Shown here: piece by piece, positions 15,716 through 16,465 of the stretch
How the letters are laid out: each line of letters opens with the position of its first letter
Numbering within the stretch: the stretch's first letter is position 1
NCBI GenBank assembly: GCA_963841925.1
Contig: CAWJER010000005.1
Coordinates: 34,086-98,085, forward strand
Length of the DNA: 64,000 bases
Source of the DNA: an uncultured Acidimicrobiales bacterium
Lineage (GTDB): Bacteria; Actinomycetota; Acidimicrobiia; Acidimicrobiales; RAAP-2
Direction of reading: 5' to 3'
The notes under the pieces: generated by a model
What the model was told of the DNA's origin: nothing
The model's input: the letters and a program-made list of their open reading frames with translations, nothing else
Databases searched by the model: none
Position numbers and translations under genes: made by a program

Positions 15716-16465
15716 GGCCACGGCTACTGGCTGGTGGCCTCCGACGGCGGCATCTTCGCCTACGGCGACGCCGGCTTCTACGGCTCCACCGGAGCGATGA
15801 CGCTCAACAAGCCGATCGTGGGCATGGCACCGACGCCGTCGGGCCACGGCTACTGGCTGGTGGCCTCCGACGGCGGCATCTTCGCCTACGGCGACGCCGG
15901 CTTCTACGGCTCCACCGGAGCGATGACGCTCAACAAGCCGATCGTGGGCATGGCGGCGACGCCGTCGGGCCACGGCTACTGGCTGGTGGCCTCCGACGGC
16001 GGCATCTTCGCCTACGGCGACGCCGGCTTCTACGGCTCCACCGGAGCGATGACGCTCAACAAGCCGATCGTGGGCATGGCACCGACGCCGTCGGGCCACG
16101 GCTACTGGCTGGTGGCCTCCGACGGCGGCATCTTCGCCTACGGCGACGCCGGCTTCTACGGCTCCACCGGAGCGATGACGCTCAACAAGCCGATCGTGGG
16201 CATGGCGCCGACGCCGTCGGGCCACGGCTACTGGCTGGTGGCCTCCGACGGCGGCATCTTCGCCTACGGCGACGCCGGCTTCTACGGCTCCACCGGAGCG
16301 ATGACGCTCAACAAGCCGATCGTGGGCATGGCGCCGACGCCGTCGGGCCACGGCTACTGGCTGGTGGCCTCCGACGGCGGCATCTTCGCCTACGGCGACG
16401 CCGGCTTCTACGGCTCCACCGGAGCGATGACGCTCAACAAGCCGATCGTGGGCATGGCCACCTGA
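15716..16465 (+). repeat. 6 tandem 126-bp (42-aa) units, almost identical at the DNA level
   Basis: Units start at 15716, 15842, 15968, 16094, 16220 and 16346. Each encodes [38 protein letters not shown](P/A)TPS. Units differ by only 1-2 nt, in the GMA-P/A-T codon region. Confidence 0.9.

Follow-up and report, generated by a model that had tools for sequence, protein, structure and literature searches.

A predicted six-bladed beta-propeller module proposed to target secreted proteins of Acidimicrobiia to the cell wall

Introduction

The fucose-binding lectins AAL, RSL and BambL bind glycans multivalently through a beta-propeller of six short, highly similar blades, which is a monomer in fungi and is assembled from trimerising two-blade chains in bacteria. 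Here we describe a 42-amino-acid repeat found in a 64,000-nucleotide stretch of DNA (the window) from an uncultured Acidimicrobiales bacterium (assembly GCA_963841925.1, contig CAWJER010000005.1, positions 34,086 to 98,085 of the forward strand), where three proteins each end in a module of six copies. Like the lectins, the module is predicted to form a six-bladed ring of short, highly similar blades, and its family likewise includes both six-blade chains and short chains whose blade number divides six. It differs from them in having three-blade chains as well, and in being part of larger proteins (enzymes, adhesins and endolysins), not a free-standing one. No sequence relationship to the lectins was detected, no Pfam lectin model matches, and the multivalent glycan binding established for them is only proposed for the module.

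In its position and company the module also resembles the known cell-wall-binding modules. LysM, SH3b, triplicate SLH and CW_binding_2 repeats, choline-binding repeats and PG_binding_1 are, like it, terminal non-catalytic repeats forming pseudo-symmetric assemblies, and they too are common to peptidoglycan hydrolases, surface proteins and phage endolysins. The module is set apart from them by its predicted propeller fold and by the lack of any Pfam match, and the wall binding known for those modules is for this one a proposal. It sometimes occurs in one protein with PG_binding_1.

Among propellers, RCC1 and BLIP-II share with the module a hairpin of the form 'DG-x-V/I-x-x-F/W-G' and, like it, are propellers of secreted actinobacterial proteins, while BLIP-II blades are three-stranded and about 40 amino acids long, as those of the module are predicted to be. 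The NHL propellers, including the PknD sensor domain and the designed 'Pizza' proteins with their 42-amino-acid blades, are similar in having six blades of 42 residues and an extracytoplasmic location in actinobacteria, but NHL blades are four-stranded, whereas three strands per blade are predicted for the module.

We propose, at a probability of about 60%, that the repeat forms the blades of a six-bladed propeller family not described before, whose role is to target proteins to the cell wall, and that the two- and three-blade chains of phages probably assemble into such a ring.

Results

Three proteins in the window end in six repeat units

A preliminary description of the window, made from the sequence alone, had reported that six 42-amino-acid units end each of three proteins. 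Translation, a six-frame motif scan and a hidden Markov model (HMM) confirm this for a giant surface protein (p1), a glycoside hydrolase-like/discoidin protein (p2) and a Cys-rich secreted protein (p3):

15716..16465, + strand: six-unit module of p1; units 1-5 of 42 amino acids and unit 6 of 39, followed by the stop codon; spacing exactly 42 amino acids
23964..24713, + strand: six-unit module of p2; amino acids 1098-1346, spacing 42 amino acids, first and last units degenerate
49281..50069, + strand: six-unit module of p3; amino acids 587-848 of the open reading frame (ORF) with a TTG start, unit 3 with a 12-amino-acid insert

Each module is the 3' end of a long plus-strand ORF. The start given earlier for the p2 repeat, 23962, is out of frame by two bases, and the first codon lies at 23964. 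In p3 the motif scan gives unit spacings of 42, 43, 54, 42 and 42 amino acids. A regular-expression scan of the six-frame translation of the window recovered 17 units clearly and, in p2, the degenerate first unit as well, with no further copy beyond the three modules. All 18 units score between 55 and 86 bits with an HMM built from them, which excludes chance. As had been noted, none of the three ORFs contains an LPXTG-like motif or a hydrophobic C-terminal tail, and all three terminate within the repeat itself.

For the p1 array, Tandem Repeats Finder reports a period of 126 with 6.0 copies and 98% matches, and the DNA units are 97.6-100% identical, with mismatches confined to unit positions 113-116 (window 15716-16462). 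The nearest paralogous unit within the window is unit 4 of p2, at 89% DNA identity. We read the p1 array as the product of very recent amplification or homogenisation and, on the fold model below, as a natural propeller of near-perfect six-fold symmetry that resembles the designed Pizza6. That p1 retains exactly six near-identical, slippage-prone DNA copies argues for selection on the number six. Near-identical tandem blades, which imply recent amplification from one blade, are also known from the Nostoc WD40 protein 2YMU (Foldseek match 7 of the p2 module model; template modelling score TMq 0.64). 2YMU, however, belongs to the WD40 family with its seven-bladed rings, and its sequence identity to the module is only 16%.

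The module is predicted to close into a six-bladed ring

AlphaFold2, given residues 1086-1346 of p2 together with 72 aligned relatives, returned a model of the p2 module with a mean predicted local distance difference test score (pLDDT) of 92.8 and a predicted template modelling score (pTM) of 0.88. DSSP assigns 18 strands in this model, strictly three per unit (GYWLVA, GGIFAF and PIVGMA). The modelled chain opens with a GYRLV strand and closes with a C-terminal PFVGAE strand, and since the inner-strand segment thus comes last in the chain, the last strand can complete the first blade. A blade would consist of three strands, inner (PIVGMA), middle (GYWLVA) and outer (GGIFAF), and the loop GDAxFYGSTG. 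Because the chain of each window protein begins on a middle strand and finishes on an inner one, its C-terminal strand would complete the first blade in a 'velcro' closure.

A Foldseek search of the PDB with this model gave 1,256 matches at E<=0.001, and all those listed are beta-propellers aligned over about 250 of the 261 residues; against BFVD, likewise only beta-propellers were found. Together with the strand pattern of the model, this provides both the repeated small sheets and the propeller matches expected of the fold. The matches are mostly WD40 proteins, with probability 1.00, TMq of 0.5-0.65 and identities of 10-18%, which we interpret as a fold-level match without a close structural relative. 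Neither RCC1 structures nor PknD and Pizza structures are among the top 50 PDB matches. Taken together with the copy-number data below, these results point to ring closure. The closed six-bladed propeller suggested in the preliminary description is accordingly supported by the model scores, by Foldseek and by the quantised copy numbers, and the fold prediction, in which six units would make one closed ring, is a strong one.

Sequence comparisons separate the repeat from described families

No Pfam or NCBIfam model covers the repeat in scans of the three proteins and their modules, bearing out the earlier description of it as unnamed. Matches to the repeat are short and spurious (L24e, fil_hemag and F510_1955, and in relatives SH3_YKFC_2nd and CSD_RNase_II); the scores of L24e, SH3_YKFC_2nd, CSD_RNase_II and F420H2_quin_red are sums of short matches with no significant stretch. 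Five relatives (P0028, P0053, P0081, P0088 and P0094) are named 'ribosomal protein L24E' in automatic JGI annotation, and on the profile evidence we take this naming of repeat proteins to be a systematic annotation error.

PDB sequences searched with a profile of the six-unit module gave nothing significant. With a single-unit profile, the RCC1-like domain of HERC1 was matched weakly and periodically (E 6.8e-5), no one stretch being significant, and the resemblance is restricted to a 12-residue hairpin, 'sDGxVfxFG'. This is the part of a previously noted likeness to RCC1 and BLIP-II that stood. The rest did not, and membership of RCC1 (PF00415, PF13540 or RLD) was rejected. RCC1 Pfam models have no match at E<=0.1 in the three window proteins, and in two relatives, P0131 and P0187, they match only a genuine RCC1 domain (residues ~90-450) and not the 42-amino-acid module.

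The module could still be a divergent propeller of RCC1/BLIP-II type whose role, like that of BLIP-II, is to inhibit or regulate other proteins such as beta-lactamases or penicillin-binding proteins. The HERC1 match speaks for this, as do the three strands per 42-amino-acid unit that DSSP assigns in the AlphaFold2 model, since BLIP-II blades are also three-stranded, and the fusion of one relative to a beta-lactamase domain. We nevertheless judge it very improbable. Pfam RCC1, RCC1_2 and WD40_RLD miss the module even beside a genuine RCC1 domain, and the module profile, aligned by hhalign with the RCC1 domain of P0131, reaches a probability of 0.2% over 12 columns. No BLIP-II chain occurs among the PDB profile-search matches at E<=10, the module has six blades rather than seven, and no RCC1 structure is among the 50 best Foldseek PDB matches.

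Other memberships were rejected on similar grounds. There is no Pfam WD40 match, and the Foldseek likeness to WD40 proteins is at the level of the fold only. NHL (PF01436) has no match on the modules, although the six-blade count and the 42-residue period are shared; the NHL matches listed for three relatives are scores for the whole protein. LysM, SH3b, SLH, CW_binding_1/2, PG_binding_1, ChW, LGFP and GW models do not match the module, and PG_binding_1 is present only as a separate domain adjoining it. A search of full-text literature on repeat motifs, Acidimicrobiia propellers, wall-binding propellers and endolysin binding domains did not find the repeat described. We regard the repeat as the blade of a beta-propeller family not described before; by the tests run it is not a member of RCC1, WD40 or NHL, and probably not of BLIP-II.

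Phage endolysins end in two or three blades

Relatives of the module are encoded at 62 viral loci on IMG/VR contigs, in which 55 ORFs end in only two (33 ORFs) or three units (22 ORFs, for example 4029-4952 of L085). These ORFs are 224-561 amino acids long and carry the units at the extreme C-terminus. Amidase_2 or GH25 was found in 9 of the 12 phage ORFs scanned with Pfam, and 9 of 10 of these also compared with PHROGs match endolysin/amidase lysis families. As a rule, the C-terminal domain of endolysins from phages of monoderm bacteria is the wall-binding domain, and the presence of blades at exactly this position argues for wall binding by the blade more strongly than any other evidence available.

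The phage repeat region opens with an inner strand (e.g. GGAVEIVSTPSG) and stops a few residues past FGDAxFYG, so that these chains consist of whole blades without a velcro strand. Blade numbers of 2, 3, 6 and 12 are divisors or multiples of six, which fits a ring built as a trimer of two-blade chains or a dimer of three-blade chains.

The viral loci have a median G+C content of 0.66, which fits high-GC actinobacterial hosts. In one siphovirus-like genome (L108), the two-blade module gene (5383-6243) is flanked by genes for tape-measure and minor tail proteins and, at its opposite end, by a tail-fibre-like gene and an integrase. A second viral contig (L084) carries two module genes, at 5026-8160 and 8977-9804, encoding a 1,044-amino-acid protein with six units and PG_binding_1 and a 275-amino-acid Amidase_2 endolysin with two blades. 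Among GenBank phages, tblastn found a single distant match, in the mangrove-soil phage GX15bay (L143, MK557849, 2651-6565), whose 1,304-amino-acid 'GH25' protein contains two diverged arrays, the first of six units and the second with five detected; with only this match, cultured phages give no host information.

Partner domains point to the cell envelope

In short cellular relatives the partners of the module are mostly peptidoglycan-active domains, namely NlpC/P60, CHAP, Amidase_3, VanY and Rpf-like transglycosylase, with YkuD (L,D-transpeptidase) together with PG_binding_1, AMIN-like and CAP domains as further examples. Longer relatives combine it with TIG, fn3 and Big arrays, other propellers, S8 peptidase, beta-lactamase and phosphoesterase. 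A crude test for an N-terminal signal segment, scored on Met-start relatives, was positive in 133 of 209, compared with 1 of 15 cytoplasmic control proteins from the window. All three window proteins and most relatives have such a segment, but about a third of the relatives are negative. The suggestion that the module is an envelope-anchoring or ligand-binding device is supported by this context of peptidoglycan enzymes and endolysin C-termini. None of the three observations named beforehand as contrary to the preliminary reading was made (a significant HMM match to a characterised family, a predicted structure that does not close into a propeller, or frequent occurrence in cytoplasmic proteins).

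The same partners bear on two other explanations. In the first, the module is a general lectin or carbohydrate-binding module that ties secreted proteins to foreign polysaccharides (plant, fungal or from other bacteria) and not to the producer's own wall. The association in p2 with a glycoside hydrolase-like core and a discoidin domain, the beta-helix, peptidase and phosphoesterase domains among the partners, and the occurrence of p3 in a wood metagenome would all agree with it, as would the strong blade-to-blade conservation, which AAL, RSL, the tachylectins and other multivalent propeller lectins typically show. We consider it unlikely, if still worth weighing, because phage endolysins, whose target is the wall of their own host, attacked from inside the cell, have the blades where the wall-binding domain sits, and because the L,D-transpeptidase, Rpf-like transglycosylase, VanY and beta-lactamase partners act on or in the producer's own wall.

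In the second, the module docks proteins onto an S-layer, a scaffold or each other in the manner of dockerin and cohesin. Beta-propellers are classic interaction platforms and the top Foldseek matches are WD40 scaffolds; as a terminal tag the module is promiscuous, joined to a great many unrelated passengers and present in several paralogues at a locus, and its two- and three-blade forms imply self-association. Against docking, the three window genes sit among housekeeping genes with no conserved partner gene adjoining them, an endolysin would gain nothing from attaching to an S-layer protein outside the wall, and the WD40 likeness is generic at TM 0.5-0.65 and 10-18% identity. We give this explanation, too, a low probability. 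Targeting to the cell wall is the most likely function on this contextual evidence.

Family size, distribution and copy number

An exhaustive HMMER scan with the single unit detected 20,202 clusters (50% identity) at E<=1e-3 and 10,084 at E<=1e-30, and we take at least 20,202 such clusters as a lower bound on the size of the family. A word-index search gave at least 8,000 matches. The best 80 genomic loci come almost all from metagenome-assembled genomes of Acidimicrobiia, Acidimicrobiales or Actinomycetota. One locus (L002) contains three module ORFs within 6.7 kb, and neighbouring module paralogues also occur at L005, L013, L027, L031, L042, L058, L074 and L076 in Acidimicrobiia genomes; such frequent clustering points to large lineage-specific expansions.

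Unit counts were taken from ranked samples, which are not a random census. Exactly six units occur in 95 of the 120 best word-index matches, a set that was found with a six-unit query profile and so leans towards six, and in which apparent sevens are six units plus a strand fragment. The count is also six in 84 of 91 ORFs of genome loci (one has 12 and one 11) and in 125 of 149 representatives, the remainder of which are arrays of 12 or decayed 2x6 arrays, three with seven and one with eight consecutive units. The representative search was ranked by summed repeat score, so that long arrays would come first, and its largest array has 12 units. Cellular proteins contain six units in about 85-92% of cases, 12 in a few, and rarely seven or eight. 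The earlier expectation that the copy number is always six stands in the window and in most relatives; the 12-unit, seven- and eight-unit, and phage two- and three-blade forms, which it did not anticipate, are exceptions to it.

Of the 149 representatives, 122 carry the module at the C-terminus and 23 at the N-terminus. It occurs in two circular permutations: roughly 80% of the C-terminal modules, among them those of p1, p2 and p3, begin with the middle strand and end with the inner strand, and about 17% begin with the inner strand. Across 1,104 units, positions G3, Y4, W5, D10, G11, G12, F14, G17, A19, G23, S24, L30, P33 and V35 are each 93-100% conserved. With the same signature in every blade, each blade may offer an equivalent site.

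This conservation also bears on whether the propeller is itself an enzyme, as many six-bladed propellers are, of the lactonase, phytase or cyclase type. The polar residues D10, S24 and N31 are conserved, but they are kept in every blade (those of p1 being identical), which leaves no single asymmetric active site. Moreover, the module always lies alongside other catalytic or adhesive domains, and no Pfam model of SGL, Phytase-like, Arylesterase or similar enzyme-propeller families matches it. An enzymatic propeller is the least credible of the explanations we considered.

Genes carrying the module and their surroundings

The three genes that carry the modules are:

5323..16465, + strand: p1, giant adhesin-like gene of ~3,700 amino acids, in two ORFs (5323-9264 and 8936-16465) split by a 1-nucleotide frameshift
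20673..24713, + strand: p2, 1,346 amino acids; N-terminal anchor/signal, weak Glyco_hydro_cc, F5/8 type C (discoidin), Gly/Ser/Pro linker, module
47643..50069, + strand (TTG start at 47523): p3, 808 amino acids from the ATG at 47643; signal peptide, Cys-rich region, module

All three proteins have an N-terminal signal or anchor segment. In p1, Pfam-A identifies CarboxypepD_reg-like repeats, five TIG, nine He_PIG and fn3 domains between the signal peptide (5404-5481, within the upstream ORF) and the repeat module. We read the two ORFs as one gene; both frames hold the same CarboxypepD_reg-like repeats. The frameshift lies near 8950-8965, within the ORF overlap at 8936-9264, and the recurrent '...GINDALA...' motif is regained when one base is deleted near 'atcgagcgcg'. 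Either the sequence contains an error here or the gene has recently become a pseudogene. The Pfam-A match to Glyco_hydro_cc in p2 is borderline. The N-terminal Cys-rich region of p3, about 540 amino acids (47643-49280), has no Pfam match, and the full TTG-start ORF contains 17 Cys. A protein identical to p3 is called on two ENA metagenome contigs, one of them from wood, with the same neighbours.

No dedicated operon or partner gene was seen beside the three window genes. Their surroundings are housekeeping genes (clpC, radA, disA, folE, folP, an ECF-type sigma factor and kdpA), with p3 flanked by clpC (44744-47401) and radA/disA (50520-53047). Two further genes in the window deserve mention:

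2383..5133, + strand: ORF directly upstream of p1; Peripla_BP_6 fused to a Wzy_C/O-antigen-ligase-like membrane domain
41844..42938, - strand: DDE_3 transposase with HTH domains (IS630-type insertion sequence), amid housekeeping genes

The Peripla_BP_6/Wzy_C fusion is unusual and is possibly linked to the attachment of surface glycans or wall polymers.

Discussion

Our proposal is that the ring acts as a non-catalytic targeting module that would hold secreted proteins on the wall of monoderm, Acidimicrobiia-type actinobacteria, taking the place of LPXTG/sortase, LysM, SH3b or SLH-type anchors. Its ligand, bound multivalently, is probably peptidoglycan or a glycopolymer linked to the wall. Phages of these hosts would reuse the blade as the wall-binding domain of their endolysins, encoding just two or three whole blades, and a trimer of two-blade chains or a dimer of three-blade chains could rebuild the six-bladed ring, an oligomerisation that we infer purely from the blade counts and chain ends. 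More tentatively, and with the odds somewhat against so complete a picture, this may be the first beta-propeller family to serve as a cell-wall-binding domain, with a covalent six-blade ring in cells and oligomerised two- or three-blade endolysins in phages.

In order of likelihood, the competing explanations are a lectin for foreign glycans, protein docking, an RCC1/BLIP-II-like inhibitor and an enzyme, and each is weakened by the endolysin context, by partner enzymes acting on the producer's own wall and by the identical conservation of the blades. Several observations weigh against a wall-targeting six-bladed ring. Many partners are not wall enzymes (TIG/fn3/Big arrays, S8 peptidase, RCC1, NHL and phosphoesterase), so the module could bind ligands or proteins more generally. 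In the crude test about a third of the relatives gave no signal, for which fragments and miscalled starts are likely causes. Well-scoring consecutive arrays of eight (P0130, amino acids 310-640) and seven units (P0131, 656-949; P0160, 372-664) could be seven- and eight-bladed variants or assembly errors in near-identical repeats. Lastly, an AlphaFold2 check for two rings in the 12 contiguous units of P0122 yielded an uninformative model (pLDDT 55, pTM 0.45).

Soils, peat, wood and waters all contain abundant Acidimicrobiia, whose cell envelope is little understood. If the fuller, more tentative picture is true, the module would be the main surface-anchoring system of this dominant yet poorly cultured soil and water lineage, and in its phages endolysin activity would be coupled to oligomerisation. 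Wall binding, if confirmed, would establish a new principle of anchoring and, in endolysins, a binding domain of a new type. Tens of thousands of secreted proteins (at least 20,202 clusters) carry the tag, their current annotation being 'hypothetical' or, in error, 'ribosomal protein L24E'; a named family with a profile would tidy this annotation and mark the surface proteome of the lineage. Finally, the series of 2, 3, 6 and 12 blades, together with the near-symmetric p1 array, would offer a natural system in which to follow propeller evolution by blade amplification and oligomer-to-monomer fusion.

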